A DNA stretch of 64,000 bases from Escherichia phage kaaroe. The stretch lies in the sequence record MN850574.1. The stretch is one strand, 5' to 3'. Both the position numbers and the translations under genes were made by a program. Positions 323-63,634 of the stretch are shown one piece after another (positions within the stretch are counted from its first letter, which is position 1; each line of letters begins with the position of its first letter). Below the pieces are notes generated by a model that was not told the origin of the DNA, searched no databases, and was given only the letters and a program-made list of their open reading frames with translations.

Positions 323-332
323 GGAGGACAAT

Positions 333-641: not shown

Positions 642-648
642 AAAACTG

Positions 649-677: not shown

Positions 678-711
678 GACCGCATCAAATGAACGATGTG
701 AGGATTATATT

Positions 712-1020: not shown

Positions 1021-1034
1021 TGTGAGGTGAATTT

Positions 1035-1828: not shown

Positions 1829-1838
1829 GGATTATATA

Positions 1839-2270
1839 ATGGTTTATCCAACCCCTAGTAAGATTTACATTGACGATACTCATTTTCTTGTTGAAATTAT
1901 GGGTATCAAGTTTAGTGGTAATGTTAAAATTGTAGAATGGGAATTGCACGGTCAATCTGTAACCGATTATGACCATTATATCCCTTTCGGTGGCGATGAT
2001 AACTTTGTTTCATTCGACCATGAAGGTTACATGAACTTTGAGCAAGACGATGTACCTTTGTATCTGGCAATGATGGATATTCCTACTAAAACAGAATATA
2101 CAGAGGGTGATTGCGATTGTTGCGGATACTACAGCGTAACAGATATTAAGCTGCTATCCGGTAAAGAACTTTACAAAGAGGATCATTTCGGAAACTGCAA
2201 TTTTCCGTGTGATTGGCAAGAATTTTTCGAACTGGTAGAGATTGAGCGAACTTATGTGAGGAAGGGATAA
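1839..2270 (+). CDS. hypothetical Cys-rich protein
   Basis: ORF with GAGGATTATATAATG start context; CDCCGYY and CNFPCDW motifs. Confidence 0.5.
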   Translation: MVYPTPSKIYIDDTHFLVEIMGIKFSGNVKIVEWELHGQSVTDYDHYIPFGGDDNFVSFDHEGYMNFEQDDVPLYLAMMDIPTKTEYTEGDCDCCGYYSVTDIKLLSGKELYKEDHFGNCNFPCDWQEFFELVEIERTYVRKG

Positions 2271-3082: not shown

Positions 3083-3090
3083 GGTATAAC

Positions 3091-3372
3091 ATGGTAGAAA
3101 TTTTTGGTTTTGAAGGTTACAACTGTAAGTATTGCCAGAATGCAAAGCGCCTTTGTGAAGCGCGTAAGATCCCTTACATCTACATTCCGGTTAATGATGG
3201 TGTGGACGAAAACGGTCGCCCGGTAAAGATTGATTCTATCATTGCCGATATTCAGGATCGCGCAGGGGTAGAAGTTATTGCCACCATGCCGCAGATTTTC
3301 TATGATGGTGATTATATCGGTGGCTTTGATGAGTTCCGATCCTTTGTAGTCAAAAACAAGATTAATGGTTAA
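3091..3372 (+). CDS. nrdC: thioredoxin/glutaredoxin-like protein NrdC
   Basis: CKYC redox motif, MPQIFYDGDYIGGFDEF tail similar to recalled T4 NrdC; ATG 3091 after GAGG. Confidence 0.7.
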   Translation: MVEIFGFEGYNCKYCQNAKRLCEARKIPYIYIPVNDGVDENGRPVKIDSIIADIQDRAGVEVIATMPQIFYDGDYIGGFDEFRSFVVKNKING

Positions 3373-3933: not shown

Positions 3934-4206
3934 ATGCGTAAGATGTTTAAATCCGGTGTTGCCTATGTTTTTAAATCTGAGCAAGCACATAAAGACTTCT
4001 TAGATGATGAATACGAGGGGGTGAAAGATACCTACGAAGTCATCAAGAATGGGTTTACTGTTCTTAAAGTGTCACCTGTTGGTTATGTAAGTGAAATCTC
4101 GGTTGATGGGAAAACATACACCGCTAAAGACTTTGATCCGCGTTGGGAATTTATGCTGCTTCCGTGTGAGCGCATTCTGTTCCGTGCTGTTCAATTAGTG
4201 AAATGA
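3934..4206 (+). CDS. hypothetical protein, paralog family A member 1
   Basis: AAGGAG RBS; GF(T/K)VLKV..G.V..I.VDG..YT..DF module shared with next two genes. Confidence 0.5.
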   Translation: MRKMFKSGVAYVFKSEQAHKDFLDDEYEGVKDTYEVIKNGFTVLKVSPVGYVSEISVDGKTYTAKDFDPRWEFMLLPCERILFRAVQLVK

Positions 4207-4220
4207 TAGAGGATTATATT

Positions 4221-4787
4221 ATGGTACAGAAAACGTATAAATTGTATCCGGCTAAGTCTTCAAATGATGCTGTTTTTGAACGAGGTCGTTATTACACTTT
4301 CCGTAATGCTGAGTCCGCAGAGGAATTTGTTAAACGCTACCCACAACATAACAAGTTCCTGTATGGTGTGCTTCACAGGGGCTTTAAAGTTCTTACGGTT
4401 AATGTTATGGGTAAAGTGTATTTGGTAGAAACTCATGATTATGAGGGTGCATCAATCATGATTGATGCAAGCGAGCGCAAATACTTTAAACGCATCACTA
4501 AAAAGCAGTTTGAAGAAATGAAACCAGTTAAGAAAGAAGAATCTCTGGAAGATCTGATTAACTTGTTTGGTAAAGTTCGCTCTATCTCCTTTGCGATTGA
4601 AGATGACATTACCGACAATAAAATCTTTATCAAGAACGCGGAAGACCTGAAAGAGTTCCTTATTGAAAATAGATCTCGGCTGGAAACCTTTCTTGAAAGT
4701 GAAATTATTCGACATGATACCTACGCTAAATTCAGCGCCGATAAAGTAGCTGAACTGAAAGAGATCCAAAAGTCATTTAACGCTTGA
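4221..4787 (+). CDS. hypothetical protein, paralog family A member 2
   Basis: Shares GFKVLTV and ERKYFKRITKKQFEEM modules with 4844..6022. Confidence 0.55.
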   Translation: MVQKTYKLYPAKSSNDAVFERGRYYTFRNAESAEEFVKRYPQHNKFLYGVLHRGFKVLTVNVMGKVYLVETHDYEGASIMIDASERKYFKRITKKQFEEMKPVKKEESLEDLINLFGKVRSISFAIEDDITDNKIFIKNAEDLKEFLIENRSRLETFLESEIIRHDTYAKFSADKVAELKEIQKSFNA

Positions 4788-11403: not shown

Positions 11404-12228
11404 ATGAAATGGGAAATTGGTAAAACTTACACTTGGAAAGATGAAAACGCGAAAACTGAGTTTATTACTAACGGAGAAGGTGTTCTTTCTCCACTTAACA
11501 GCGATATCAGTGCAGCTATTGGTGACAAGCCATTTACCATCATCGAGATCGAGGGTAACGGTTGGATTGATGCAATAGAGCTAGACGGTGTTTATCATAC
11601 GGCGAAAACTGCTACAGGAAAAGACATTTGGACTGCAACATATTTCTTTAGTCCATTCGATAGAAAATTCTTTCGTGAAGTTGAAGAAGTTCCCCAGAAA
11701 TGGGAAGTTGGTAAAACTTATACTTGGAAAGATGCGAATGCTATGACCGACTTCTGTCATTATGCTGAAAACGTATCTAACCTTAATTATGTTATTGCAC
11801 GAGCAATAAATTATAGACCTTTTACTGTTAAAAATGTTAGTCCATGTGGGCAAGTTAATGTAATTGAAATTGATGGTAAAGACCATACTCTAATGAGTGC
11901 AACCGAAGATAGCGACCATAAAGGAACTAGCTGGTTTATTGATTCTGATAGAAAATTCTTTCGTGAAGTAGAAGAATTGGAAGTTATAACCACTGATTCT
12001 AAGATCGTTGGACAGTTGAAACGTCTGTTTAGTAGTCGTTATGGCCTGACAATGGTTAAATTTAGCGAAGCAAATGAAGGTAAAACCTTTGAACGTTTCG
12101 ATGATTTCATCGCAGCACTTGACAAGATGGACGAAATAATGCAAGATCGCCAGAAGATTAAAGACCTTCAAGAAGACATTAAACGTCGTGAAGTTGAATT
12201 TTTGATTGGTAAAGAGCGAGGTTGGTAA
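11404..12228 (+). CDS. hypothetical protein, paralog family B member 3 (two tandem modules)
   Basis: MKWEIGKTYTWKD and a second internal QKWEVGKTYTWKD; repeated DRKFFREVEE. Confidence 0.6.
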   Translation: MKWEIGKTYTWKDENAKTEFITNGEGVLSPLNSDISAAIGDKPFTIIEIEGNGWIDAIELDGVYHTAKTATGKDIWTATYFFSPFDRKFFREVEEVPQKWEVGKTYTWKDANAMTDFCHYAENVSNLNYVIARAINYRPFTVKNVSPCGQVNVIEIDGKDHTLMSATEDSDHKGTSWFIDSDRKFFREVEELEVITTDSKIVGQLKRLFSSRYGLTMVKFSEANEGKTFERFDDFIAALDKMDEIMQDRQKIKDLQEDIKRREVEFLIGKERGW

Positions 12229-44695: not shown

Positions 44696-46042
44696 ATGAA
44701 TAAATCAGTTACTTACCGCAGCCTTGAAAGCATTGTACATAATGAAGCTAAGGAATATGCGATCTATTCTGCCGAGGAACGCGGGATTCCTCAATTAGTG
44801 GATGGGCTTAAACCAGTGCAACGCTTTGTTATGGAGTGCGCACTTCAAAAGAGTAAAGGTGACCGTAAGAAATTCCGTAAGATGGCAGATATTGGATCTG
44901 GTGTTGCTGAGTTGGGGTATCACCACGGCGAAACTAATGCCGTAGAAGCCGGATCACTCATGGCGAATACATGGAGCAATAATACTCCACTGCTTGACGG
45001 TCAAGGTAACTTCGGATCGCGTTTAGTCCAGAAAGCAGGTGCGGCACGTTATATCTTTGCTCGCGTGCATGAAAACTTCTTTAAAATCTATAAAGATATG
45101 AATTGCGCACCTAAGCACGAAGATCTGGAACACATCCCGCCAGCGTTCTACTTGCCAGTTGTGCCAATGGTATTGGCTAACGGTATTAGTGGTATTGCTA
45201 CAGGGTATAAAACTGACATTTTACCGCATTCACTGGAAAGCCTTATTGAATGCACAGAGCTAGCACTTGCCGGAAAACTGGATAAAGAACCTAGTGTTCA
45301 ATTCCCGAAATTCACGGGTAAAGTTATCCCGCGAGATGATCGCGATGGTGTGATTCTTGAGGGTACATATGAACTAAACGGCAAGACTAAACTGACAATA
45401 TCAGAAGTTCCTTATAAGTTCGACCGTGAAGAATATGTAGCGGTACTGGATGCACTGGAAGAAAAAGATCTGATTGTATCGTATAATGACCGTTGCTCTA
45501 AGGACGGATTCAGATTTGAAGTAACACTGAAACGCGATTATTTCAAAAGCGAAGATGAATCCGCTCGACATGAGCAAATCATGAAGGATTTTAAACTAAC
45601 GCAGTTAGTAGCCCAGAATATCGTAGTAGTTAACGAACGTGGTTTAGTAGAAGTATTCGAGAAAGCGAGCGATCTGATCCGTCGATTCGTCGAAATCCGA
45701 TTAGGGTATGTCGATAAACGCATTGAATTGATGCAAGCGGAAACGCTGGAAGCATACAATTATGCAATGGCTAAAGCCGAATTTATCGATCGCGTAATTA
45801 AGGGCGAAATCGAGCTACAGGGCAAGAAAAAGGCCGAGGTAATGCAATCCATCAATGGACATGAAAAACTGCGTCCATACGCCGATAAGCTAGTTTCTAT
45901 GCCATTGTATAGCGTTACTCAAGAAGAGTATGATCGACTGGTCAAAGATGCCGATAAACATCATAGTGAATATGAGTATTGGACAAAGACGACCGCAATG
46001 AAGGAATATAAGAAAGATCTTAAAGAACTTAAGAAGGGTTGA
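44696..46042 (+). CDS. 52: topoisomerase II medium (GyrA-like) subunit gp52
   Basis: DGLKPVQRFV motif and breakage-reunion region; position after the rIIB region. Confidence 0.9.
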   Translation: MNKSVTYRSLESIVHNEAKEYAIYSAEERGIPQLVDGLKPVQRFVMECALQKSKGDRKKFRKMADIGSGVAELGYHHGETNAVEAGSLMANTWSNNTPLLDGQGNFGSRLVQKAGAARYIFARVHENFFKIYKDMNCAPKHEDLEHIPPAFYLPVVPMVLANGISGIATGYKTDILPHSLESLIECTELALAGKLDKEPSVQFPKFTGKVIPRDDRDGVILEGTYELNGKTKLTISEVPYKFDREEYVAVLDALEEKDLIVSYNDRCSKDGFRFEVTLKRDYFKSEDESARHEQIMKDFKLTQLVAQNIVVVNERGLVEVFEKASDLIRRFVEIRLGYVDKRIELMQAETLEAYNYAMAKAEFIDRVIKGEIELQGKKKAEVMQSINGHEKLRPYADKLVSMPLYSVTQEEYDRLVKDADKHHSEYEYWTKTTAMKEYKKDLKELKKG

Positions 46043-46044
46043 TT

Positions 46045-46242
46045 ATGAAAGAATATCCAGAAGGCGGTTATATTGCATTTGTGTACAACAATAAAAAGAT
46101 TGTGCCAATGGTCGTTGAGACTATGGAAGAAGCCAACCGGATCACTATTGAATCTCTGAGCAAATTAGCAGAGATGACAAACACACCAGAACACAGAGCA
46201 AAGATCGACAGCTTGATGAAAGAATTTTCAGAGAGGAAATAA
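46045..46242 (+). CDS. hypothetical protein
   Basis: Small ORF, ATG 46045 just after gene 52 stop. Confidence 0.4.
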   Translation: MKEYPEGGYIAFVYNNKKIVPMVVETMEEANRITIESLSKLAEMTNTPEHRAKIDSLMKEFSERK

Positions 46243-48351: not shown

Positions 48352-49110
48352 ATGAAAAACATTATCGCTGCTATCGTTCTTTCTGCTACTGCTTTCGGTG
48401 CTAACGCTGCGTCCTTTGATTGCGCTAAAGCTACTACCAAATCAGAGAAGTTTATTTGTGCTAATGAGTCTATCTCCGCACTGGACTCTAAACTTCATGA
48501 GGTGTATGTTAAGGCTGTTAAGATTGATCCGTCTCTGAAACAAGAGCAACGAAACTGGAATAAAACTGTTCGTGATACAATGATCAATATAGGGCAGATT
48601 CAGCCACTGGAGGCTGTATATAACGCTCAAATCCAAAACTTGATGAATGTATTACCTAAAGAAGAAACCGCGTCAGAAAGCGATTCAGAGACTTCTGCGA
48701 AGGTTGAAGAAGAACAACCGAAACAGGAAGCAAAAGTGGTAGAAGAACCGAAGGTCGAAACTTTTACCTATCAATGTACCGTTCGTTATGAGTGGAGTAT
48801 GAAAGATGGAATTTCCACAAAAATTAAAGAGGCTCCACTGTATGCAAAATATGGAAACCAGCCAGGGGATCTTAAAGTAACCATTAAAAATGGGAAGATG
48901 GTTGATTTTGTATACACTGATGAATACAACGTACACAAAGCAAACGTACAAGAAACCGTTATGACTAAAGGCGGGTTTTATAAGAATGTTGGCAAGAAAG
49001 ATCTATATGAATACTCCGTTTTCGAACCAAACGACGGAACTATTCGATTTGAAAAACGTCATCCTACATTCGGTGGAGCAATTGATGTAGATCAATACGT
49101 TTGCAAGTAA
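48352..49110 (+). CDS. secreted protein with LprI/DUF1311-like N-terminal domain
   Basis: Signal peptide MKNIIAAIVLSATAFGANA; CAKATT..E.FIC..ISALDSKL..VY pattern typical of DUF1311; acidic linker then C-terminal domain with second Cys pair. Confidence 0.5.
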   Translation: MKNIIAAIVLSATAFGANAASFDCAKATTKSEKFICANESISALDSKLHEVYVKAVKIDPSLKQEQRNWNKTVRDTMINIGQIQPLEAVYNAQIQNLMNVLPKEETASESDSETSAKVEEEQPKQEAKVVEEPKVETFTYQCTVRYEWSMKDGISTKIKEAPLYAKYGNQPGDLKVTIKNGKMVDFVYTDEYNVHKANVQETVMTKGGFYKNVGKKDLYEYSVFEPNDGTIRFEKRHPTFGGAIDVDQYVCK

Positions 49111-50803: not shown

Positions 50804-51127
50804 ATGATCGAGTTTGAAATTGACAACTTTCACGAAAAAGCAGAAGACCTAACCAAAATTTTGATTAGTCGAGGTGCATATAATACGAAAGATATTATAA
50901 AAGAAGTTAATGTAGCGATGGACGCGATCCGAAAGGAATTTAAACATATTTCAGCGATTGGAGAAAATGGTCATCTTGAAGATGTTGAGCTGGTAGCACT
51001 GCGACGCTATTACTTCTTTGTTGATTGCATCATTGATCTAGCTAAAAATTATAGTCATTACATGAAAGATATTGTAAAAGATGCACGTAAGCTGGCAGAG
51101 AATGTTTACGGGAAGTTTCCAGAATGA
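50804..51127 (+). CDS. hypothetical protein, paralog family C member 2
   Basis: C-terminal ..IVKDARKLAENVYGKF similar to the previous gene. Confidence 0.45.
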   Translation: MIEFEIDNFHEKAEDLTKILISRGAYNTKDIIKEVNVAMDAIRKEFKHISAIGENGHLEDVELVALRRYYFFVDCIIDLAKNYSHYMKDIVKDARKLAENVYGKFPE

Positions 51128-51372
51128 AATTAGAACAAGCGATTGTATACTTTGAGATGGGCTATGATATTGCTCGTGTAGAGTGGGAAGATGGTGATTT
51201 TGTCCGATTGATTGATCTTCCAGAAACAGCTATTGCACTGGTCAAAGTAGAAAACGGCGTACAACGAAATTACGCGTTTTCTGACGAAGACAAACAAGCC
51301 GATGACTGGTACGCTACCTGTTTTCATCATACAGCGTCAAAATGCGATTCAGGCGCGTCTATGCGCCAATAA
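51124..51372 (+). CDS. hypothetical protein
   Basis: Last + strand ORF before the convergent terminator. Confidence 0.4.
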   Translation: MKLEQAIVYFEMGYDIARVEWEDGDFVRLIDLPETAIALVKVENGVQRNYAFSDEDKQADDWYATCFHHTASKCDSGASMRQ

Positions 51373-51375
51373 AAA

Positions 51376-51405
51376 GAAGGGGAGGCCGAAAGGCTTCCCC
51401 TTTAA
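51376..51405. terminator. bidirectional intrinsic terminator between convergent transcription units
   Basis: GGGGAGGCCgaaaGGCTTCCCC with A/T runs on both sides, between + strand ORF end (51372) and holin stop (51407). Confidence 0.6.
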
Positions 51406-51406
51406 G

Positions 51407-52063
51407 TTATCTAATCCTTCCGAGGATTCTGGCAGATTGATTGCAAAGAGTATCTAAATTCTCAATGTCAATATCCGGTTTATTCTTCCATGAAATGGCG
51501 ATACTACCAGAATAGACATTATCGAGATTGAATATAGGACAAGAATACATGAAACCTATATCGATATTCTCTAATTTCTTTTCTCTTGATGGAATATACT
51601 GGAAATCTTTATCGGTAAAATATGATTTACCTAAAAGATGCCTACGATATTCTTCACTCGTTTTATTGATAGGGAATCCGCCTAAATTTTTTTCATCGAT
51701 TGTGTGAGGTAGCTTTCCTTCATATGCCACCAAATCAACAAAATAGTTTAGGTTTTTCGGACGAAAACTAAAAACAGCAGAAAAATCGGCATCAGCCGAC
51801 ACATGAACTATCTGTAACTGCTCCTGTGCTGCATTATCAAAATTGCGGTCTTTCTCTACCTGGAGAATGTGAGCATAAGTCTCATAACGAGTCTCTTTAT
51901 AAAGCGCAAATAACTCGTTTTTACTATAAACGACAAATGCTAATATGGACAACACGACGGCAGCAAAAACACGAAGTACGAGCAACTCCGTGCTTTTAGT
52001 TGTGAAAATAGCGCGCAGGACATTTGAGATAGCAAAGTCTTTCCCTTTTTCAGAAACTTGCAT
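51407..52063 (-). CDS. t: holin T
   Basis: 218 aa, one N-terminal TM helix; QLQIVHVSADADFSAVFSFRPKNLNYFVDLVAYEGKLP and CNQSARILGR colinear with recalled T4 holin. Confidence 0.85.
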   Translation of the reverse strand: MQVSEKGKDFAISNVLRAIFTTKSTELLVLRVFAAVVLSILAFVVYSKNELFALYKETRYETYAHILQVEKDRNFDNAAQEQLQIVHVSADADFSAVFSFRPKNLNYFVDLVAYEGKLPHTIDEKNLGGFPINKTSEEYRRHLLGKSYFTDKDFQYIPSREKKLENIDIGFMYSCPIFNLDNVYSGSIAISWKNKPDIDIENLDTLCNQSARILGRIR

Positions 52064-52096
52064 ATAATGCCCTAAGATAACTATGACAGTGTACTC

Positions 52097-52336
52097 TTAT
52101 TTAGGTAGTTGACTATCACTAGGTTTATCTTGCTCGTTACTATCTTCTGACTGATCTTTATTAAACTCCTTATAAAGTTCTTCCACAAAACGATCATCAA
52201 TTGGCGTATTGGTATAAGCCGCAAGACGACGAGCGCAATAGAAGAAAATTTTAGTGAGCATCTTTTCACTAATTAACTTTGACAATAATTTCATTCCGAA
52301 ATTAGACAAAGCACCAATGACGATATTATAGACCAT
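52097..52336 (-). CDS. hypothetical protein (79 aa) in the position of gene 38
   Basis: AAGGAGAAAC RBS; hydrophobic N-terminus, acidic C-terminus; no resemblance to T4 gp38 noticed. Confidence 0.45.
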   Translation of the reverse strand: MVYNIVIGALSNFGMKLLSKLISEKMLTKIFFYCARRLAAYTNTPIDDRFVEELYKEFNKDQSEDSNEQDKPSDSQLPK

Positions 52337-52376
52337 AGCCGTTTCTCCTTAGTAGTTCCCTTCCCTGGGAGTTTCC

Positions 52377-55139
52377 TTAATTCTTTTTAAGTTCCGCTAG
52401 TTCAGCTTTAACGGCATTCAATTCTTCGCTCATTTCCTGAAACGCCTTAATTAAAAGAGCGTTGACAGCAGAGTTAGAAATTGTTAAGATCTCTTCTGGC
52501 TTATCGGGATCGCCGATGTTAGAAGTTGTTACTGCTTCCGGTAATTCTTTTTCAAGATCCTGAGCAATAATACCAACTTCATGAGCAATGACAGTACGGT
52601 CGGTTAAAGATTTAACCTTGTCATAGGTGTATACCGTCAAGCGATTAACTTTATCAGTGGCATTCTCCTTATACTCTTCCTTGTTGATTTTAAGGCGAGC
52701 ATCAGAGCGAATGTAAACGTCGTTAAAGTTACCATTGCGTCCAGCTTGGAAATCGCCGTTTTTATAGAAGGTAGTATTAGATTCAACACCAGAACCTTTA
52801 ACATGAACTCGCCATGAACCTTCATTAAGAAGCATACCCAACGAGAATGTTACTGCACCTTGAACATAACGTTGCTTGATCAAAGGAACATATGTAGACG
52901 CATCACCACGGTCTAAACGTTGGAAAATAGGTGCTTTGACGTTATCATCATGTTGAGATGCAAAAGAACCAGCACCCGCAGAACCAGAATCTATAGTAAT
53001 GACGCTAGCGCCGCGTTGAATAGCATTACCAAAATTCAGACTACCGCCTACGTTAGCATCGCTTCCGCTATAGAAAGAACCTGCAACAGAGAACTTAACC
53101 GGACCAGTTCCACCCGCAGTACGTTCGGTATACCAATGATAACTTGTTGCATCCGTACATTCAAAAACTTGTTTTCGTGATTCATTACCCCATGTATGGA
53201 GACTAAATTGCGAAGAAGAACCACGGTTAGCATGGAATGTAATTTCGCCAGATTCTACACGCACAAATCCTTTAAATCGCGCAGTAATTTCACCGGTTGC
53301 CATTTTACGTTCAGTTGTGAAGTGTGCACCGCTATTGTCTTCAAACTGCAAAATGTTATCACGGGCGTTATTGCTATCACCCCAATGGTTGATTTTAAAG
53401 AAATCACGAGATCCTAATCGTCCACTAGAGAAATGAAGGAAACCTTTTTCTACATAAACATCACCCGTAAAACGAGCGGCTTTGCTTGCACGTTCTAACG
53501 TTAATGCAGCTTCGTTACCGTCACCGCCTAATTGAACGTTACCGGAAGTCAAATCGTAAATGAATGGTCGGTTGCCGTTCCACCCACCAAAACGATCATT
53601 TTCGGCAGTAGAAAGAAGATAAACTTTAGTGCCGTCATTACGCCAGAATGCACCATAATTACCAAAGATCATACGGTATGCATCAGAATTGGCAGCTACA
53701 TATTGACCATTAGTGTATACAATTTTGGTTGCACCTGCGCTTAAAGATACTTGACCACTTGCTTCTAGCTTAACAAAGTTTTTACCTTCGTCACTATACC
53801 ATTGAAAATCGTTGGTTTCTGTAGAACCAAAACCAAACCAGCCTTGACGTTTATTAGCCCCGTCTCGCTGATCCATATATTCAAAATAGTTACTACAACC
53901 AGTAGGACGCCACATACGAATCGCGTTATTGCCTTGCAGATGAAGTCTATTGACAAATAAACCATCACTACCAACAATTTTTAATACTTCTTTTTGGTCG
54001 GTGGAACCAGTAGCCAAACGATACACATCACCTTGAACAGTTTCATGCCATATTGTTTCCGCCGCACGACTGCGGAATTTACGCATATATTTTTTATTGT
54101 TGTCTGGTACGTTATTAAGGCTCACAATATCATAGGTTGCTTGTGAGTTATTATCAAACATCAACGTTCCGGCTTTGTTTTCTGTGTTGAACATCGTAAT
54201 AACACGAGCATCAAATTTAGTTCCGGTTGCTGGTGCAGTCGCCGAAAATTCAGGAACATCATAAACAGTCAATGCGACGTCAACAGTTTTTCCAAACTCT
54301 ACAATAACGTTATCGGTGTAACGACCATAGTTAACATAAATGTCATAGTTATCACCGGAAGTATTAATTGCAAATACTTCATGGACGTTCAAAGAATTTC
54401 GACGATATGCAGCAATAGTAACACCTTTAGGATTTCCATTCCCACCACGAATCACGATTTCAAGGAAATCCACCTGGTCGTAGGATTTAACATTAAATCC
54501 GTTTCCACCATAGATACGAATAAATGCCATTTTTCCTTGCTGGGGGATCATTGCGGTTGCAATCTTAAAGTAGCCACGAGTTGCGTCACCGGAAGGAACA
54601 GACATTTTAACGTTCTTAACAAACATACGGTCAATTTCTTGTTTGCTATAAACGTTCAATTCTCCTGGAGTTGGTTTATCACCTTCGTGATACATTTTAT
54701 AACTAAATGCTTTTTGACCTTCTCTATTATAGCCATAAGTTTCTACACGCGATCCAGTGTGCCCATACTGGAAAGTAAATCCTCGACCATGTTGGACACC
54801 GGAAGAGTGAGGAACGTTTAGCGTGAGTTCGAGAAGACCATCAAGACCATTGGTACGGAAAGCGCCAAAGTAGTTAAGATCTCTCGCTGTCTGATCTTCC
54901 AGATAGTTAGCGGTTTTACTTAAGATATAATTATTACCTTTAACCTTACCCGCCATTGTAACATCGCGGTCATAAACCGGAGGACAACTTAAATTGATAA
55001 TAGTACCGGAATCATTTTTAGTAAGAAGATATTGATCCGCAAGGTTGATTGCCAATTCCCCCGGATTCATCGTACTAGCATCAGGTTTACGACCTTTAGT
55101 GCTAGTGCGTTTAAATTGGATTCTGCTTAAATCTGCCAT
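52377..55139 (-). CDS. 37: long tail fiber distal subunit gp37 with C-terminal intramolecular chaperone (peptidase S74-like) domain
   Basis: N-terminal RIQFKR..PGELAINL and internal AGAGSFASQ..DASTYVPLIKQRYVQG match recalled T4 gp37; C-terminal SDARLK..GIIAQDLEKELPEAV matches the S74 chaperone signature. Confidence 0.9.
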   Translation of the reverse strand: MADLSRIQFKRTSTKGRKPDASTMNPGELAINLADQYLLTKNDSGTIINLSCPPVYDRDVTMAGKVKGNNYILSKTANYLEDQTARDLNYFGAFRTNGLDGLLELTLNVPHSSGVQHGRGFTFQYGHTGSRVETYGYNREGQKAFSYKMYHEGDKPTPGELNVYSKQEIDRMFVKNVKMSVPSGDATRGYFKIATAMIPQQGKMAFIRIYGGNGFNVKSYDQVDFLEIVIRGGNGNPKGVTIAAYRRNSLNVHEVFAINTSGDNYDIYVNYGRYTDNVIVEFGKTVDVALTVYDVPEFSATAPATGTKFDARVITMFNTENKAGTLMFDNNSQATYDIVSLNNVPDNNKKYMRKFRSRAAETIWHETVQGDVYRLATGSTDQKEVLKIVGSDGLFVNRLHLQGNNAIRMWRPTGCSNYFEYMDQRDGANKRQGWFGFGSTETNDFQWYSDEGKNFVKLEASGQVSLSAGATKIVYTNGQYVAANSDAYRMIFGNYGAFWRNDGTKVYLLSTAENDRFGGWNGNRPFIYDLTSGNVQLGGDGNEAALTLERASKAARFTGDVYVEKGFLHFSSGRLGSRDFFKINHWGDSNNARDNILQFEDNSGAHFTTERKMATGEITARFKGFVRVESGEITFHANRGSSSQFSLHTWGNESRKQVFECTDATSYHWYTERTAGGTGPVKFSVAGSFYSGSDANVGGSLNFGNAIQRGASVITIDSGSAGAGSFASQHDDNVKAPIFQRLDRGDASTYVPLIKQRYVQGAVTFSLGMLLNEGSWRVHVKGSGVESNTTFYKNGDFQAGRNGNFNDVYIRSDARLKINKEEYKENATDKVNRLTVYTYDKVKSLTDRTVIAHEVGIIAQDLEKELPEAVTTSNIGDPDKPEEILTISNSAVNALLIKAFQEMSEELNAVKAELAELKKN

Positions 55140-55182
55140 TTTATAAAATCCTTAAACGGTTATTAGAATAATATTATTTAGA

Positions 55183-55207
55183 AAAGCGGGGATTGTCTCC
55201 CCGCTAA
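55183..55207 (-). terminator. intrinsic terminator after gene 36
   Basis: AGCGGGGAgacaaTCCCCGCT followed on the - strand by TTTTC. Confidence 0.5.
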
Positions 55208-55209
55208 AA

Positions 55210-56700
55210 TTAGAAAGTACCAAAATCAATCACCGCATTAAGTGGAACTGCGCCAACATCAGCCGGAGTAGGTTTATTACCTTCATGATAAAGCTGATAG
55301 CGGTCCACGGTTTGAGTATTGTTTCTAGAACGGAAAAACACGACCTTTGAGTCGTGGGTGATCCCCAGCTTTTCGGTCCCTTTAATATCACTAATGCGGT
55401 GAATCATAGCAGTACCATCAGCACCGCTTAACGCCGCATAACAGTTATCCCCGTTATAGTTAGTTTTAGCTGTTCTAACACCGTTTGCAGCCGGAACAGT
55501 TAACGGTCCTGTCATGGTATCGCCAGTGACGTTAACATAGCGAATATCAGCCAATTTACGGTGATCTACATAGTTCCATGCAGTCCATGATTCATTAGAA
55601 CACGAACGCCAGCACATCGGATGGTCAATAGATTCAGGATAATACACCTGAACAATTCGACGAGTACCAACAGCATCTTCTGGGCGATATACCATCAAAA
55701 CGCCGTTATAATAGCTATCAGACGGTTTATTAGTACCTGATCCAGCATTTTCCACACGATAGATACCGCGATTAATAAGAGTGTTCCAATCAACGTTTCC
55801 AATGATGGTTGGATTTGCTACCATTGATTTTCTCTCAAAGTAGCTCAAACGAACCAATTCATTAGGACCAGCAGGATCGTTTGTCGCCAACATTCTAGGC
55901 GCTTGCAAGTTACCTTCCATAATATCACCAGCACGTTTAACCTGTGCATCATTGGTGACATTGCCTAGCCCAACATCGGCTTTAGTTGGTTTATTGTTGG
56001 TGTGATAAAAACGACCTTCTCTGCCATTAACAAAAATGGTAGGCTCATCTTTACTTCGGAAGACCAACGTGTCAAGAACGTTACCATAATAGATCTTAGT
56101 CGCATCAAAATTAATTAAATCACGTTCCCTTGCAATTAATTTCGAATCAACCGATAGTTTAACAGTGACAGTGTTTAAATTATATGTTCCTGTGAGGGTA
56201 TCACCGCGACGAGACACCAAATCTAAATCATTATTCGTTGGTTTATTAACAGGGCTATAGACGCGTTGACCTGTGTCTTTAATGGTTGTCCCTTCGATAG
56301 TCCCTTTAGACTTAAATTCGCCCGTTGTGGTGTCAATATACGCCATAATAACGCCATCACGGGCATTAACAAAGCCGATTGACTTCCATGAATGCAAACC
56401 CCAGCTTACGCCGTCAAAATTAGCAGCGTCGCTCTGACCTTTAAAGATACCATTCTTTTTGGTTTCTCCAGCCGATGCGCTACCTACGCTTAAACCTTCC
56501 TCGAAATGAACTTGCTTTTGAAATGTGCCACCTTCGGATGCACTAACAGCATCAAAATCGGTAGCCGAAGGTCTATCAAAAGCGGTATAGATTTTATGAC
56601 CTTTGTAGAAAAGCTGATCCCCCGCTGGCTGGATCGTCAAGTTTCCTTGCGTCCAAATGGGAGATCCACCTACAGTAGATCCATATTTCAAATCTGCCAT
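55210..56700 (-). CDS. 36: long tail fiber distal connector gp36 (enlarged, 496 aa)
   Basis: N-terminal MADLKYGSTVGGSPIWTQGN..PAGD matches recalled T4 gp36; about twice the T4 length. Confidence 0.8.
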   Translation of the reverse strand: MADLKYGSTVGGSPIWTQGNLTIQPAGDQLFYKGHKIYTAFDRPSATDFDAVSASEGGTFQKQVHFEEGLSVGSASAGETKKNGIFKGQSDAANFDGVSWGLHSWKSIGFVNARDGVIMAYIDTTTGEFKSKGTIEGTTIKDTGQRVYSPVNKPTNNDLDLVSRRGDTLTGTYNLNTVTVKLSVDSKLIARERDLINFDATKIYYGNVLDTLVFRSKDEPTIFVNGREGRFYHTNNKPTKADVGLGNVTNDAQVKRAGDIMEGNLQAPRMLATNDPAGPNELVRLSYFERKSMVANPTIIGNVDWNTLINRGIYRVENAGSGTNKPSDSYYNGVLMVYRPEDAVGTRRIVQVYYPESIDHPMCWRSCSNESWTAWNYVDHRKLADIRYVNVTGDTMTGPLTVPAANGVRTAKTNYNGDNCYAALSGADGTAMIHRISDIKGTEKLGITHDSKVVFFRSRNNTQTVDRYQLYHEGNKPTPADVGAVPLNAVIDFGTF

Positions 56701-56734
56701 AAAGTAACCTCAAAAAATTAGTTATAGTTCCGAG

Positions 56735-56742
56735 TATTTATA
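56735..56742 (-). promoter_or_regulatory. T4-type late promoter TATAAATA
   Basis: TATAAATA on - strand about 30 nt upstream of gene 36 ATG. Confidence 0.6.
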
Positions 56743-56870
56743 GAATGTTAACAAAATATCGCTTCGCGACGTGCCGTAGGCACTGGCTATTTTTTAACCG
56801 AAACAAATTTCTATTATTCTAAAGATCTTTCTTCGTTTTGGTTACATTTTAACCAACTGTATAAAAAATA

Positions 56871-56893
56871 AAGCCGACCACATGGGTCGGCTT
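56871..56893 (-). terminator. intrinsic terminator after gene 35
   Basis: AAGCCGACCcatgtGGTCGGCTT followed on - strand by TATTTTTTAT. Confidence 0.6.
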
Positions 56894-56903
56894 GTTAAAA
56901 ATG

Positions 56904-58043
56904 TTAATCAACATCGAACTCTTTAAAGTTGTTGGATGTGATGTGTTTATTATCTCTGGGTAGTTTAAGAAGACTCATTACAGGGTTAGTAAAATCACCG
57001 TTATCCTGAATATGAGTTGTTCTAACACCATTAACACCAAATGAAGTAGGACCAGTAGTTTTGACAACTCCACTGATCGGCGTTATTAGTATGTTTCTAA
57101 TTTTAACAATACCTTCATTGGAGTTGGTTGGATATCTGATACAACCAGTTACTACACTATCAACTCCTTCCGGTACGGTATAGACGGCTTCAAACTTTTC
57201 CCATTGGTCTTTTTTGCTGGCATTGTATCGAACACCAGTTTGATATTGTCCATCGGTGAAGTAGTTGTGATAGAAACGCGCTGTTACGTTGGCTGCGGCT
57301 GCGGCACTATCACGGAACAATTCAAAGGATATTGATAGTTTGTCACCTGCCTTTATGTTAAAATCCTCAAGTGGGGCGCTGGTCTCATCATGAGGCCATT
57401 GTATTAGCTCGAAATGTTCGGCATCTTCGCTAACATACTCAACCGGATAATCTAAAAATCGTTGTGGTGTTCCTGTTATAGCAAGATCATCTATAGTATC
57501 ATAGACTTTCTCAATTTGTATAGATGAATCTTGTCCTTCCCCGTGAGTTGCTTGCATCCCTTCGCACACAATTTTACCCATTTTAGTAGAATAAATTGCT
57601 GCATATGATACACGAGGCATTTGCTGTAGCAAAATGTGATTCGGGAATGATACAGATCCCAGCTTAGAGAATACACCATCACTGATCGGATCTGCAAACA
57701 ATTCTCCATGCGTTGCCATCGCAATGATATAGTCACCTTTCAGCAAAGAAAGATAATCACGCATTGCCAAAACAGCACCGCGACCATAGAATACCTTTTC
57801 TTCGTGTAGTTGTCCAGTTGGAGTAAGAACTTTAAAATTTAGGCCATTTTCATAGCCAGTGCCAACGATCTCCACTCCATTAAATCTAATCCTTGCTGGT
57901 TTGGTAGAATCCGCATTAGATCCGCGCACTTCCAGCTTATACATCACAGAGTTATTTTCTGAAATGCTGGTAAATGTCGCAGAGTCTTCGTCGAAATGCG
58001 CAAACCTAATTCCAGTGTTGCGTAATTCTATATCTTGTGTCAT
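56904..58043 (-). CDS. 35: long tail fiber hinge connector gp35
   Basis: Position between 34 and 36; NNSVMYKLEVRGS, VSYAAIYS and FGVNGVR resemble recalled T4 gp35 segments. Confidence 0.75.
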   Translation of the reverse strand: MTQDIELRNTGIRFAHFDEDSATFTSISENNSVMYKLEVRGSNADSTKPARIRFNGVEIVGTGYENGLNFKVLTPTGQLHEEKVFYGRGAVLAMRDYLSLLKGDYIIAMATHGELFADPISDGVFSKLGSVSFPNHILLQQMPRVSYAAIYSTKMGKIVCEGMQATHGEGQDSSIQIEKVYDTIDDLAITGTPQRFLDYPVEYVSEDAEHFELIQWPHDETSAPLEDFNIKAGDKLSISFELFRDSAAAAANVTARFYHNYFTDGQYQTGVRYNASKKDQWEKFEAVYTVPEGVDSVVTGCIRYPTNSNEGIVKIRNILITPISGVVKTTGPTSFGVNGVRTTHIQDNGDFTNPVMSLLKLPRDNKHITSNNFKEFDVD

Positions 58044-58055
58044 AATAACCCCATA

Positions 58056-58071
58056 GGGGGCTTTCGCCCCC
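58056..58071 (-). other. intercistronic GC hairpin between genes 34 and 35
   Basis: GGGGGCgaaaGCCCCC (minus-strand sense) in the 33-nt gap, no T-run. Confidence 0.4.
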
Positions 58072-58076
58072 TTTAA

Positions 58077-61000
58077 TTAGTCTTCCCAGATAAAGTCTAC
58101 GGTACGAGTCAGATTATTGGCGATGATTTTAACATTACCAACTTTGATCCAATCACGAACCGTCATAGAGTTCATTAAACCACCTTCTGCAACTACTGCC
58201 CCGATTTCCTGAGCGGTAGGCTTATTCTGTTTGGTGTAAATTTCACCCCATGCTGTCCATTGACCACCAGTACCGGAACGGATATAATGTTTATGAGTAC
58301 CATCAGGGGACCAAAGCTGGGTAAGCCCGTCCGCGTCAGTACCCCATTGCATCAGAGTACCGTTTTTCTTCTCTGGATAAGTTTCTTTGATGTTCTGGGT
58401 AGTAACTCGCATATTCCAGAAACCGATGTTACCGATTGCCGGAGCGGTTGCCGCGCTAGCTTCATGCTTAACAGAAACAATAGGCGCATTATCCATAGTC
58501 AGCTTACCGACCATTGTATCGCCAGCATTCTTAACAAACTGACGGTTAAGAACTTCGTCGGCGTTTCCTGCGTGTACGATCTGATATTTCTGTCCGGCGA
58601 TCTCTGTAGTTAACGTTTGATGACCTGCCTTGATGTTAACACTTCCACCGTGACCGATATTCAGCATACCATCTGAGGAACGAGTCATTGCCGGATTAGA
58701 CTGGTCAACTATGTATAAACCGCCTTGTTTCGCATACAGGTTACGACCTGCAATAAAGTCTCTATATGCTGTCGCGTCGCCATTGTGTTTCATAGCAAAG
58801 GCGTAATGCTCAACGACTCCACCATCATTGATTTTACCGAAAGCGATAGCATCACTATCAACAACTTGCGCTGTTCCAGTACCACCAACGATAATAGACC
58901 AAGAGTTTTTCATGCCTTCCGATGCGGTTGTGCCATGCAGAGTAATTCCGGTGTGACCGTCAACTCCACGCTCACCCAACACCAGATGACCATTACTCGG
59001 AACATCGGTCGAGTTCTTAGTCACAGACAGAGTTTCAAAGGAACCTGATTTTAAGCACTCTAAATCGCCCTTCACGTTAACGTTTTTATTAAACGTGTAA
59101 TTGCTCTCTATGGTCTGATCAATGTCTCTACGCGCCCATTTAGCGGCCTCTACGTTACCCAATTTCAAACTATTCTGAGCGGTTGCCATCTTAGGTAAGA
59201 AATTAGCAAGTGCGTAGTTTAATCCTTTAGGGGTAACAGCAATTCCGTCATGCTGGTAGTTTCCTAGTTCTTGAGTAGAACCTTGCAGATTATCACCAAC
59301 AAAACAGTTTTCCTGAGTAGCAACTTTCAAGAAGCCACGACGCGCTTCGGTTGCTTTCCATGTATCCTCTGTCTGAACAACATATTTGAAGTTCTTCGGA
59401 GAAATTGCTACATTGTCCATAATACCAGCCACGGTTTCGGCTTGAGTACCAACTCGGATAATACCTTCTTTACCTTCGGTGGCCTTTTTGCCTTGCAGCT
59501 TTTTAGGCGTGATGATTGTAGTATCATCTTGACCAGCGTCAGTAAGCTGAGTAGTCGCAACTTTAGCGACACCTTTTGTATCTTCGGTTGCATCCAGACC
59601 GCTGATCATGATACCTTGCCACAAATCACCAGTAAGGTTAAGCCCCTGAGTCGGATCTACTTTCAAACGCTGTGCATTCTCAAAGAAGGTTTTAATCTTC
59701 AATGGGGTAGAAATGCGATCATCGTCACGACCTGCGTCAAATTCCGGCTGAGTTGCAATTTCTGCTAAACCGTGTAAAGTTTCCGTTGCGCGGCGAGTAT
59801 GCAACTTTTTAGGCGTGATGATATGGTTATCACTTTGACCTAAGTTTGTTTCTTCCTGAGTTGCAATTTCAGCGATACCAGTGCGCGATTCGGTAGCAGT
59901 ACGTTTCGTTAGCGTGCGAGTCGTGATGAGTAAAGCATCTTGCTGGGTTGATTCTGTAGCCCCTTGCACTTCCGCGTCAGTTGCCAGATAGCCAACACCA
60001 CGGGAAGTTTCGGTCGCCTTGACTTCGTTGATGTTTTTTGGCGTAACAATTTTAGCATGGTCATTGATGTTATAGATCCCTGTACCAGCTTCGCCACGTC
60101 GAGCGGCAGCACTGCCGCCAGCCTGAACAATTTCAGCAATACCAGCGAGATCTTCGGAAGCGCGACGTTCTTCTAATTTCTTAGGAGTAATAGCGCGGGT
60201 ATCGTCTAAACCTTCATTGGTTTCGTGCTGGGTTGCAATTTCCATCACACCACGACGGGCTTCGGTAGCAACACAGTCATTTAACTTTTTAGGCGTAACG
60301 ATAACATCATCCAGGAAGTTGGAACCAGTATCTTGATGCGTTTCCGCTTGAGTCGCAATGCGAGCAATACCGCGTCGAGTTTCGTTGGCGGTTTTATTAG
60401 CCAGCATTTTTGGTGTTACTGCAACTTCGTCGCTAGGATTCTCTTCATGGTTTTTATTCGTTTCAGTTTGGGTAGCCAGTGCAATTACACCAACACGATC
60501 TTTACGAGTCGGATCTACTCGTTCTACAATCGGGTGAGCATGTGCCACCAACCAGTATTTCTTACCATCATCACCTTCTGAATAAGAGAACTCCAGATAA
60601 GGTACATAATCATTTGCAGCGTTGAAAGACAATTCAGATACTCCCGTCCATGTATCGGTCCCATTGAATGGGTACTCGCTACGCTTAGGAAACTGAACCA
60701 TGTTTTTCTGCATAAGGATTTTTGTATCCTCTGTGGCGGTGATAATACGGCAATTCTGGTTTCCGTTCATATACTGCATAGAAACTTGAATACGATCACC
60801 CGGCTCGACATTGGTCGGCAGCGTCAGAGTAACATCACGACCACCAAATACAGCAACATAGCTATTAGGTTGCAAGCGAGTGTCATCGATGATCGGTTTA
60901 AGACGAACAGACTGATCACCATCCCACAAACGCCATAAGTTTTCCGTCTTGTCAAAGATGAATACACCATGACCGCTACGCTTACCGATAATCTCTTTTA

Positions 61001-61817
61001 GACCGGACGTGCCAATTGATTGTTCTTCTGCGTGCTCATGAACTTTAACCGTAACGTGGTTGGTTGCGGTTAATCCGTCAAGGTCTGTAGTCTGGATCAT
61101 GTCGCCATTGTTGGCAAACTTAGGAAGCACTAAGGTAATATTACCCAACGAACTACGACGAAATACCTGATCACCATTCTGCATTTGAATAGCATCAATC
61201 GCTGGCTGTGCGTACACACCGCGTGGCTCTGTTCCTGTCTGATAAACATGCCAACGATTACGAACAAAGATGAAATAGTTCATTGCATACGGGGTAGTGC
61301 AATACCATTTTCGGTTGTACACATTACCGTTATGGTAAAACTCATGTCCTGTACTCAAGAACGATAATTCGTTAACACCACACTTGCCACCGATATCTTT
61401 TACTGTTATAGTGTCTCCCTCTGCTGGTTTAGTTGGCATAGAGAAAGTCAAGTTTGCAAATTGACCATCTGCTGCGATATAATCACCAGACTGTAAAGGA
61501 GTATCACCGGAAGTTGCTGCAATATAATCCCAACGTGGGTCCGTGCGCAGTGCTTGCCATTTAGTCGGGTCAAAATCACCTGCTGGCTTTGTGATATCTT
61601 CTTTTGCATAATACGGACGGTTTTGATAGATTGTAGTTCCGTATTGATCATAACCGCGAGTTGTGTCATACTGAGTAATACCATTATGGTAATTGAAAAA
61701 TTCAACGTTGACCGCATCGGTGTTGACATTCTTATCAGCCAATGCTACATTGACGACCTTTTCATTACCAGCGTCAAAGCCAAATGTGGCCTTGAAATGT
61801 TGAGAAAAATCTGCCAT
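58077..61817 (-). CDS. 34: long tail fiber proximal subunit gp34
   Basis: Repeated TETRRGIARIATQ / TEARRGVMEIATQ / TPKKL units and C-terminal TVRDWIKVGNVKI..FIWED colinear with recalled T4 gp34. Confidence 0.9.
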   Translation of the reverse strand: MADFSQHFKATFGFDAGNEKVVNVALADKNVNTDAVNVEFFNYHNGITQYDTTRGYDQYGTTIYQNRPYYAKEDITKPAGDFDPTKWQALRTDPRWDYIAATSGDTPLQSGDYIAADGQFANLTFSMPTKPAEGDTITVKDIGGKCGVNELSFLSTGHEFYHNGNVYNRKWYCTTPYAMNYFIFVRNRWHVYQTGTEPRGVYAQPAIDAIQMQNGDQVFRRSSLGNITLVLPKFANNGDMIQTTDLDGLTATNHVTVKVHEHAEEQSIGTSGLKEIIGKRSGHGVFIFDKTENLWRLWDGDQSVRLKPIIDDTRLQPNSYVAVFGGRDVTLTLPTNVEPGDRIQVSMQYMNGNQNCRIITATEDTKILMQKNMVQFPKRSEYPFNGTDTWTGVSELSFNAANDYVPYLEFSYSEGDDGKKYWLVAHAHPIVERVDPTRKDRVGVIALATQTETNKNHEENPSDEVAVTPKMLANKTANETRRGIARIATQAETHQDTGSNFLDDVIVTPKKLNDCVATEARRGVMEIATQHETNEGLDDTRAITPKKLEERRASEDLAGIAEIVQAGGSAAARRGEAGTGIYNINDHAKIVTPKNINEVKATETSRGVGYLATDAEVQGATESTQQDALLITTRTLTKRTATESRTGIAEIATQEETNLGQSDNHIITPKKLHTRRATETLHGLAEIATQPEFDAGRDDDRISTPLKIKTFFENAQRLKVDPTQGLNLTGDLWQGIMISGLDATEDTKGVAKVATTQLTDAGQDDTTIITPKKLQGKKATEGKEGIIRVGTQAETVAGIMDNVAISPKNFKYVVQTEDTWKATEARRGFLKVATQENCFVGDNLQGSTQELGNYQHDGIAVTPKGLNYALANFLPKMATAQNSLKLGNVEAAKWARRDIDQTIESNYTFNKNVNVKGDLECLKSGSFETLSVTKNSTDVPSNGHLVLGERGVDGHTGITLHGTTASEGMKNSWSIIVGGTGTAQVVDSDAIAFGKINDGGVVEHYAFAMKHNGDATAYRDFIAGRNLYAKQGGLYIVDQSNPAMTRSSDGMLNIGHGGSVNIKAGHQTLTTEIAGQKYQIVHAGNADEVLNRQFVKNAGDTMVGKLTMDNAPIVSVKHEASAATAPAIGNIGFWNMRVTTQNIKETYPEKKNGTLMQWGTDADGLTQLWSPDGTHKHYIRSGTGGQWTAWGEIYTKQNKPTAQEIGAVVAEGGLMNSMTVRDWIKVGNVKIIANNLTRTVDFIWED

Positions 61818-63037: not shown

Positions 63038-63634
63038 ATGAAAGAACTTGAATTAAAATACTATGCACACTCACAAATTGGCGTCGAAACAATCTGTGAT
63101 TTGTGGGTAGCAATGTATGACGGGTACAATCTAGTAGATCGTGCTAACACTCTAAAACACGAATTTTATTATGATACCGAAGATCATGCACTGCGTCGAA
63201 AAGGAATTTATGCTCGACTTGACGTTAATAGATCATTGATCATGGTCAAAATAGGTGATAGTGAATCTGGACTCTTCAACCGAGAAGAAATTACTTTTTC
63301 AACAATGGATGATTTCTATCATTATGTTGATAGTCTAGGCGTAAACTCCGACCTTATCGTTCCTTTATTGCAAGTAATGACATACCGCAAGTCATTGACA
63401 CTTGACCTTGAGGGTGCTATAGTGGAAATGTGCAAAGACACTTTCTATTATTGCAAAGTCGGCGAAAGAATGGGAGAGGCTCACTATGAACTTGAGTTCG
63501 AGTTAAAATCAGGTGATGAAAAAGCACTTGACATTATCCGAGAAATGATGCTAGAATATGTTGGTGACGATTTAAGTCCTAGCGAATTTTCAAAAGCTGA
63601 ACGTGGTTTTCAATTAATGACGAAAGAGGGTTAA
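63038..63634 (+). CDS. CYTH-like (triphosphate tunnel metalloenzyme-like) domain protein
   Basis: N-terminal ELELK (ExExK) and C-terminal YELEFELK acidic motif; 198 aa. Confidence 0.45.
   Translation: MKELELKYYAHSQIGVETICDLWVAMYDGYNLVDRANTLKHEFYYDTEDHALRRKGIYARLDVNRSLIMVKIGDSESGLFNREEITFSTMDDFYHYVDSLGVNSDLIVPLLQVMTYRKSLTLDLEGAIVEMCKDTFYYCKVGERMGEAHYELEFELKSGDEKALDIIREMMLEYVGDDLSPSEFSKAERGFQLMTKEG

Follow-up and report, generated by a model that had tools for sequence, protein, structure and literature searches.

We read this stretch, with a probability of about 0.8, as the standard late operon 36-37-ORF-t of a Krischvirus, in which a self-cleaving gp37 with a C-terminal Peptidase_S74 (S74) chaperone is combined with a gp38 cap encoded at a distance and with a small lysis-type ORF related to P18 of phage PM2. 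This reading builds on domain assignments, on homologies, on the order of the genes and on relatives that encode gp38. The self-cleaving gp37, the displaced gp38 and the P18 homologue have all been published already (Trojet 2011; Efimov 2022; Krupovic and Bamford 2007).

Layout of the locus

The window, i.e., the whole 64-kb stretch of Escherichia phage kaaroe DNA that was analysed, shares 93-97% nucleotide identity with Krischvirus genomes over positions 51400-56800. The phage is an RB49-like Krischvirus coliphage, and the locus is an ordinary long-tail-fibre and lysis locus. All features described here lie on the minus strand. A gp36-like distal hinge/fibre protein of 496 aa (55210-56700; phrog_16472 and phrog_1425), which aligns with T4 gp36, is followed by gp37, the distal subunit of the long tail fibre (920 aa, 52377-55139), by an ORF of 79 aa (52097-52336) and by the holin gene t (51407-52063), whose 218-aa product matches Pfam Phage_holin_T with an E value of 4.5e-61 and is 48.5% identical to T4 T. 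A good Shine-Dalgarno sequence for the 79-aa ORF, AAGGAG, can be read directly at 52345-52350, 8 nt 5' of its ATG.

A pattern scan of positions 51001-58200 returned a single T4-type late-promoter motif, TATAAATA at 56735-56742, just upstream of gene 36. Terminator scanning found a hairpin with a 9-bp stem and a T-run after the gp35-like gene (56871-56893), and no terminator-like site in the intergenic DNA between the late promoter and the stop codon of the 79-aa ORF. Genes 36, 37, the 79-aa ORF and t may thus form one late transcription unit, in which the 79-aa ORF probably shares its late transcript with holin t.

Chaperone and predicted cleavage site of gp37

The predicted mature part of gp37 (residues 1-811, 52707-55139) is assigned by PHROG, Pfam and alignment with T4 gp37. 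It belongs to a protein that matches the PHROG long tail fibre distal subunit with an E value of 8e-152, carries a Pfam Gp34_trimer match at residues 418-528 and aligns with T4 gp37 at its N-terminus and over residues 578-802. The last 109 residues of this fibre protein, 812-920 (52380-52706), form a C-terminal intramolecular chaperone, as judged from PF13884 and from alignment with the chains 6F45 and 8JOV. The preliminary description of this DNA had proposed an S74-type chaperone at this place and a profile search as its check; the search was positive and covered the whole Peptidase_S74 profile (PF13884, positions 1-58 of 58) at residues 812-871 (52527-52706). The match scores 44.9 bits, where the gathering threshold is 22, and with an E value of 1.4e-11 it is far above chance. 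The part of the chaperone C-terminal to this core, after residue 871, is not covered by the Pfam profile. Further alignments of the gp37 C-terminus are those with 6F45, a solved chain of S16 gp37 (E 4e-6), with the tail fibre chain 8JOV and, weakly, with MYRF.

The motif SDARLK begins at residue 812, with the serine codon TCT at 52704-52706 and 108 residues following to the C-terminus, and GIIAQDLEKELPEAV is also present in gp37. In alignment A4, which includes S16 gp37 and 8JOV, the residues S812, D813, R815 and K817 are invariant, as is a G-x-I-A-Q motif. A serine and a lysine with S-x4-K spacing thus stand at the start of the domain, as in S74 members, and Ser812 and Lys817 are candidate catalytic residues. 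The preliminary description had placed the cut after this serine, as S|DARLK. Codon and motif were right, but the scissile bond was not, as the alignment with S16 puts the cut before the serine. Our prediction is DVYIR^SDARLK, i.e., cleavage between R811 and S812. For S16 gp37 the cut was reported as DLNVS^SDRRIKK (PMC7917993); DVYIR^SD aligns with this site and is identical to the motif described for fPS phages in the same work.

The DVYIR strand (52707-52721) immediately precedes the predicted cut and, as in T2/S16-type fibres, is the predicted docking tip for gp38. DVYIR has been reported as the gp38 docking motif, and a model of cleavage and docking has been given for S16 (PMC7917993). Between G795 and R811, kaaroe gp37 hardly differs from an S74 fibre (locus L043) whose gene precedes a gp38-like gene. 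Autoproteolytic chaperone release has been stated for S16 (PMC7917993) and for RB49, where gp37 is described with a self-cleaving chaperone and subsequent capping by gp38 (PMC9569957). From motif conservation, we infer self-cleavage of kaaroe gp37 as well. The gp37 trimer would fold assisted by the S74 chaperone at its own C-terminus, which would then cut itself off at R811^S812. This would leave the DVYIR tip exposed, and a separately encoded T2/S16-type gp38 would dock on it and recognise the receptor.

Probable position of the gp38 adhesin gene

Gene 38 does not lie directly downstream of gene 37 here; the 79-aa ORF occupies its slot between gene 37 and t. The preliminary description had recognised correctly that the T4 gene 38 position holds an unrelated small ORF; it had also suggested that gp38 is replaced and that the fibre follows a design different from T4. 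Pfam analysis of ten mid-sized ORFs and inspection of the unassigned ORFs found no GP38-family sequence in the 64-kb window, and tblastn of the window with RB49 gp38 and T4 gp38, the low-complexity filter switched off, found neither. A T4-type gp38 chaperone was undetected: the best tblastn E values were 3.4 for the window and 1.6 for the loci of RB49. Such a window, with an unrelated ORF in the slot after gene 37, would fit a phage that matures gp37 by its own chaperone, has no gp38 and recognises its receptor by the gp37 tip, perhaps assisted by the 79-aa protein, in a non-T-even design.

We regard such a design as highly improbable, however, since tblastn found a T2/S16-type gp38 adhesin gene in all Krischvirus relatives listed, at a conserved locus just past the window edge. 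This gene is about 55 kb away from gene 37 in all close relatives. In the closest ones, PTE-Eco09 and JEP8, it is found about 2.15 kb left of the segment corresponding to window positions 1-3100. Hence gp38 is not visible here because its expected position falls about 2.15 kb outside the left end of the window. In RB49, gene 38 corresponds to positions 45367-46143 and encodes a Gly-rich protein of 258 aa with Pfam matches to GP38 (E 7e-72) and Gp38_N (E 6e-18); ORF143w and ORF164c of RB49, checked as gene 38 candidates, were both wrong. Host-range mutations of RB49 map to gp38 (E230K/Y231S; PMC9569957), which together with the DVYIR docking motif likewise argues against recognition by a bare gp37 tip. 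Moreover, members of the 79-aa family are also encoded 3' of gp38-like genes, as well as in phages without a comparable fibre.

From its collinear relatives, we infer that kaaroe encodes a gp38, which would dock on the gp37 tip. That g38 of RB49 is displaced and that a small ORF takes its slot was reported earlier (Trojet et al. 2011, who cite Desplats 2002). With distant gp38 adhesins encoded in RB49 and its Krischvirus relatives listed, a functional replacement of gp38 is not borne out, and the displacement of gene 38 concerns the order of the genes rather than the mechanism. The fibre does differ from that of T4 itself, as had been proposed, but it would match the predominant T2/T6/S16 design and would not be new.

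The 79-aa ORF as a probable P18-like lysis factor

The preliminary description had considered the role of the 79-aa ORF unknown; instead, PF26925, hhalign and the literature (PMC1950889) identify the protein as a homologue of the PM2 lysis factor P18. The family name PF26925, Phage_PM2_Gpl, comes from precomputed Pfam annotations, which carry it on all 71 homologues, and NCBIfam and local Pfam profile searches gave no match for the ORF. Family alignments compared with PM2 gp l by hhalign reached 90% and 92.7%, the latter with an E value of 4e-7, and the ORF matches phrog_402 (E 5e-20). It is 97.5% identical to RB49p252, and PMC1950889 lists RB49 among the phages that encode P18 homologues. Full-length family members have 56-79 aa, apart from one entry of 104 aa and two shorter, probably truncated ones. 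An AF2 model features three helices with an acidic tail that is disordered. The modest confidence of this model (pLDDT 67) and the only borderline hydrophobic N-terminal helix (KD19 maximum 1.31) count against our reading.

Small size and adjacency to lysis genes, as seen for the PM2 P18 family, are both found here. Relatives in four other lineages adjoin holins or endolysins, even where gp38 co-occurs. In Krischvirus they stand before the T holin, in Ounavirinae they precede a TM/coiled-coil protein with a holin annotation, in Vibrio-type phages they directly follow GH108, GH24 or other putative endolysins, and in PM2 the P18 gene comes directly after that of holin P17. Three loci (L043, L053, L054) have the order S74 fibre, gp38-like gene, P18-like gene, TM/coiled-coil gene; the P18-like ORF thus coexists with gp38. 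The TM/coiled-coil neighbour in Ounavirinae gave no signal as a homologue of PM2 holin P17, nor did we find a credible out-of-frame lipobox ORF that would make it an i-spanin with an embedded o-spanin. The sole lipobox flag (locus L047) falls inside the N-terminal hydrophobic segment of the gene product, in frame with the gene itself.

Most likely, the 79-aa protein is an accessory lysis factor and not a fibre component; it would act in lysis alongside holin T, with which it would be co-transcribed. It could alternatively be a tail-fibre assembly or attachment factor, for example as a small protein that chaperones gp37 or gp38. The ORF lies directly 3' of a distal fibre gene or a gp38-like gene in both Krischvirus and Ounavirinae, which are unrelated myoviruses, and probably shares a late transcript with genes 36 and 37; for other phages, Trojet 2011 raised the idea that small ORFs located after g37 act as chaperones. 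We nevertheless find a fibre role quite unlikely. In the Vibrio-type loci examined, the ORF follows an endolysin and not a fibre gene, and tailless PM2 has the homologue P18, a lysis factor encoded after holin P17. Likewise, the Ounavirinae fibres 5' of the ORF vary in class, with and without S74, while the holin-like 3' neighbour is constant.

How an accessory lysis factor would act is a separate matter. PM2 P18 is reported to be needed for disruption of the outer membrane at lysis (PMC9502842, PMC6356626), and within the family this role has been reported only for PM2 P18. RB49-type phages already have T4-type spanins (PMC6139136), so that a P18-like outer-membrane disruptor seems redundant there. 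Instead of disrupting the outer membrane, the 79-aa protein might regulate holin T as an antiholin or timing factor, perhaps as a stand-in for RIII. Its gene is immediately upstream of t, the partner elsewhere is a holin or holin-like single-TM protein, spanins are already present, and neither the window nor the RB49 loci gave a significant match to T4 RIII (best E 0.04). We still hold this role to be unlikely: the ORF is unrelated in sequence to T4 RIII (hhalign probability 0.04%), the Vibrio-type partner is an endolysin and not a recognisable holin, and the sole experimental data on the family, those on PM2 P18 as summarised in PMC9502842 and PMC6356626, point to the outer-membrane step. More broadly, we may speculate that in the spanin-encoding coliphages, i.e., Krischvirus and Ounavirinae, P18-like proteins are partners of single-TM holins such as T, with a part in timing or triggering in the place of an undetected RIII, and are not redundant disruptors. 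They may also travel in a horizontally exchanged cassette of fibre tip with chaperone, gp38, P18-like gene and holin common to Ounavirinae-like phages and Krischvirus, but this conjecture as a whole seems rather doubtful.

Three points matter for the annotation and engineering of RB49-like therapeutic phages. It is gp38, with its gene far from the fibre operon, that determines host range, and not the gp37 C-terminus; the last 109 residues of gp37 would be a disposable folding domain; and the small gene before t probably belongs with the lysis genes.

Comparison with known systems

T4 resembles kaaroe in homologous shaft segments and a homologous N-terminus of gp37, in gp36 and in the downstream holin t. 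However, T4 gp37 has no counterpart of kaaroe residues 803-920, the chaperone region. Its needle/head domain instead depends for folding on two separate chaperones, gp38 and gp57A, of which T4 gp38 has no homologue that we found here. The fibres of S16, T2 and T6 (PDB 6F45) share with kaaroe the S74 chaperone with its SD-R-K motif at the cleavage site. In this type, the tip that cleavage uncovers receives the Trp-prong N-domain of gp38, and Krischvirus gp38 has Gp38_N and GP38 domains. The difference is one of position, with gene 38 following gene 37 in S16, T2 and T6, whereas in Krischvirus it is about 55 kb away and a lysis-type ORF takes its slot. Endosialidase, T5 pb1 and MYRF (MEROPS S74) likewise have profile matches above threshold, a C-terminal position after a trimeric fibre and a Ser and Lys in S-x4-K spacing; at the sequence level, we found no difference between them and the predicted kaaroe domain.

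PM2 P18 is, like the 79-aa protein, small and helical, is assigned to PF26925, lies beside a holin and has the core E..I...F..A..LA..T.T..DD.F...L. It measures 51 aa in comparison with 79 aa here, the kaaroe protein having an additional acidic disordered tail. Furthermore, PM2 has no spanins, in contrast to Krischvirus, and the P18-type gene and the holin gene come in opposite order in the two.

RB49, Phi1 and JSE share the order 35-36-37-small ORF-t with kaaroe, with gp38 displaced to a distant locus. RB49 gp37 ends in the same C-terminal intramolecular chaperone (94% identity over the last 127 aa). The two proteins differ in a mosaic middle part, with 60.5% identity overall and lengths of 979 aa in RB49 and 920 aa in kaaroe, which is no difference in kind.

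Locus organization and relatives

Between positions 51400 and 56800 the sequence shares 93-97% identity with Krischvirus genomes (MIZ6, FL38, RB49, Phi1 and others), which identifies the source, as judged from sequence, as an RB49-like "pseudo-T-even" coliphage. On the minus strand, gp34 (58077-61817) and a gp35-like gene (56904-58043), both window ORFs, are followed by a gp36-like gene found by family searches (55210-56700, 496 aa) and by gp37 (52377-55139, 920 aa; long-tail-fibre distal subunit PHROG, E 8e-152). Then come a 79-aa ORF (52097-52336; phrog_402, E 5e-20) and holin t (51407-52063, 218 aa; Phage_holin_T, E 4.5e-61). A lone T4-type late-promoter motif, TATAAATA (56735-56742, minus strand), is located immediately ahead of gene 36 and is itself preceded by a strong terminator-like hairpin (56893-56871, minus strand), and a scan of the intergenic DNA from gene 36 to the start of t returned no terminator-like site. 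This argues that genes 36, 37, the ORF and t are probably expressed as one late transcript.

Elsewhere in the window, an early-gene region of this lytic phage encodes a 252-aa protein (48352-49110, plus strand) whose N-terminus resembles a signal peptide and which contains the Pfam domain LprI, a "lysozyme inhibitor" (E 1.4e-5). A 274-aa protein without Pfam match (11404-12228, plus strand) features an internal tandem duplication, in which "KWEIGKTYTWKDENAKTEF...DRKFFREVEE" recurs as "KWEVGKTYTWKDANAMTDF...DRKFFREVEE"; the ending of ORF 4203-4787, "...ERKYFKRI", is similar but looser. Adjoining RNase H, a 198-aa CYTH-domain protein (63038-63634, plus strand) is the counterpart of RB49ORF244c, annotated "similar to ygiF".

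The gp37 chaperone domain

As put forward in the preliminary description, gp37 ends in an S74-type intramolecular chaperone domain (IMC). Its residues 812-871 matched the full Pfam Peptidase_S74 profile with 44.9 bits (E 1.4e-11), against a gathering score of 22 bits. Alignments of the C-terminus were also obtained to Salmonella phage S16 gp37 as deposited in 6F45 (E 4e-6) and to the tail fibre chain 8JOV; MYRF aligned weakly. S812, D813, R815, K817 and a G-x-I-A-Q motif were invariant in an alignment that took in RB49, two metagenomic fibres, S16 and 8JOV. T4 gp37 matches the N-terminus and residues 578-802, and the last ~118 residues have no T4 counterpart. Taken together, these findings show that the observation is real.

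The SDARLK motif indeed starts at residue 812 (codon 52706-52704), its Ser being followed by 108 more residues, but cleavage after this Ser, as initially proposed, is not what related fibres suggest. The cut reported for S16 separates the two serines in DLNVS^SDRRIKK; the fPS phage site that aligns with it, DVYIR^SDGRLKI, is predicted to be cut before Ser (PMC7917993). The window gp37 reads exactly DVYIR^SDARLKI; from this alignment we predict a cut at R811^S812 that would free 109 residues.

gp37 is a mosaic, with 60.5% overall identity to RB49 gp37 (920 versus 979 aa), 94% identity in its final 127 aa and >92% identity in the flanking DNA; a Gp34_trimer domain lies at aa 418-528. The gp36-like protein is more than twice as long as T4 gp36 (221 aa), which aligns with its residues 1-171 and 251-294 only. 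The distal half-fibre may hence be built differently from that of T4.

Gene 38 and fibre maturation

Neither an RB49-type nor a T4-type gp38 was found within the 64-kb window. The 79-aa ORF does occupy the gp38 slot, but the proposal that it replaced gp38 is not supported. In RB49, gene 38 is displaced from after gene 37, with a small ORF there instead (Trojet 2011, PMC3157838); we located it at 45367-46143 of AY343333, encoding a glycine-rich protein of 258 aa (Pfam GP38, E 7e-72; Gp38_N, E 6e-18). By tblastn, gene 38 is present across the listed Krischvirus relatives. In PTE-Eco09 and JEP8, the two records best matching window positions 1-3100, it ends ~2.15 kb before the point equivalent to position 1. 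Judging from these positions, gene 38 of this phage probably sits just beyond the window and is not missing.

Furthermore, in three Ounavirinae-like contigs an S74-bearing fibre is followed by one or two gp38-like genes (L054 2175-3448; L053 2965-3447; L043 3432-3914), then by the ORF and a TM/coiled-coil gene. Because both coexist there, the ORF cannot be a substitute for gp38. L054 carries a tandem pair: one gene encodes a complete GP38 of 255 aa, the other a protein of 160 aa that has the Gp38_N docking domain only. This arrangement suggests that adhesin caps are interchangeable.

For RB49, a self-cleaving gp37 chaperone and a subsequent gp38 cap have been described (Efimov 2022, PMC9569957). 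By analogy to S16 and RB49, the IMC would aid gp37 trimerisation and then cut itself off at R811^S812, and gp38 from its distant locus would dock on the DVYIR tip via its Trp-bearing N-domain and recognise the receptor. In support of these steps, the pre-cleavage stretch G795-R811 is nearly identical to that of the L043 fibre, behind which the gp38-like genes encode N-termini 59-68% identical to RB49 gp38. The fibre differs from T4's own, as first supposed, but is most likely of the common T2/T6/S16 type and not a new design.

The 79-aa ORF belongs to the P18 family

The small ORF had been regarded as of unknown role; it is a homologue of the PM2 lysis factor P18, and the connection to lysis is already in print. 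Relatives were found by tblastn in 387 phage records (Krischvirus, many Felix O1-like Ounavirinae, Erwinia, Vibrio and Aeromonas phages). In a large protein collection, 71 of 71 homologues were small (nearly all 56-79 aa) with precomputed PF26925, named Phage_PM2_Gpl in gene tables. A profile of 33 members matched PM2 gp l (P18, 51 aa) with 92.7% probability (E 4e-7, 43 columns), a smaller family alignment with 90%. RB49 is among the phages encoding P18 homologues (PMC1950889), and since the RB49 sequence examined holds one relative only, at 97.5% identity, we infer that the ORF is its counterpart.

The conserved core comprises F13, E24, F31, F32, T42, T44, D47, D48 and F50. In the RB49 RefSeq (L001, 5001-5240), one frame bears two annotations, RB49p252 (79 aa) and dc5 (65 aa, start Met15); invariant F13 precedes Met15 and residues 2-14 are conserved family-wide, which favours the longer start. 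An AlphaFold2 model of modest confidence (pLDDT 67) shows helices at 2-21, 24-41 and 45-65 and a disordered acidic tail. The first helix is borderline hydrophobic (KD19 maximum 1.31; 1.3-1.9 across the family).

Gene neighbourhoods and a possible lysis role

Fibres preceding the ORF are of differing classes, with and without S74; the constant neighbour of the family is a lysis gene. In Krischvirus and one related contig the ORF follows gp37 and precedes T holin. Among Ounavirinae (Mordin, mistaenkt, Erwinia phages, L052, L055), tail fibre and ORF precede a gene, annotated holin, whose 106-124-aa product combines a single TM helix with a coiled coil, and the stop and start codons of ORF and TM/coiled-coil gene overlap. 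In Vibrio-type phages, the P18-like gene is always directly 3' of an endolysin, though the endolysin family varies (L008 2980-3713; L044 2193-2977; L048 499-1230; L051 3444-4201): two are GH108 and one a phage lysozyme, and the fourth, an unassigned protein, is a putative endolysin with transglycosylase-like motifs recognized by eye only. No obvious holin adjoins the P18-like gene in these loci. In PM2, gene l follows holin gene k.

We give a lysis role of any kind a probability of about one half. The 79-aa protein would be made simultaneously with T and most likely act at the envelope in the final lysis step, like P18. A holin partner or timing factor is a reasonable alternative: RIII went undetected in RB49-type sequence, although the ORF itself is not RIII-like by sequence.

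In sum, the observation is confirmed and its interpretation partly supported; the self-cleaving gp37 chaperone, the displacement of gp38, the small ORF that fills its slot and the homology to P18 were already described. According to Krupovic et al. 2007, as cited in PMC9502842 and PMC6356626, P17 serves PM2 as holin, and outer membrane disruption requires P18. The main difficulty for a P18-like role is that T4-type spanins are already encoded by RB49-type phages, whereas PM2 has none (PMC6139136).
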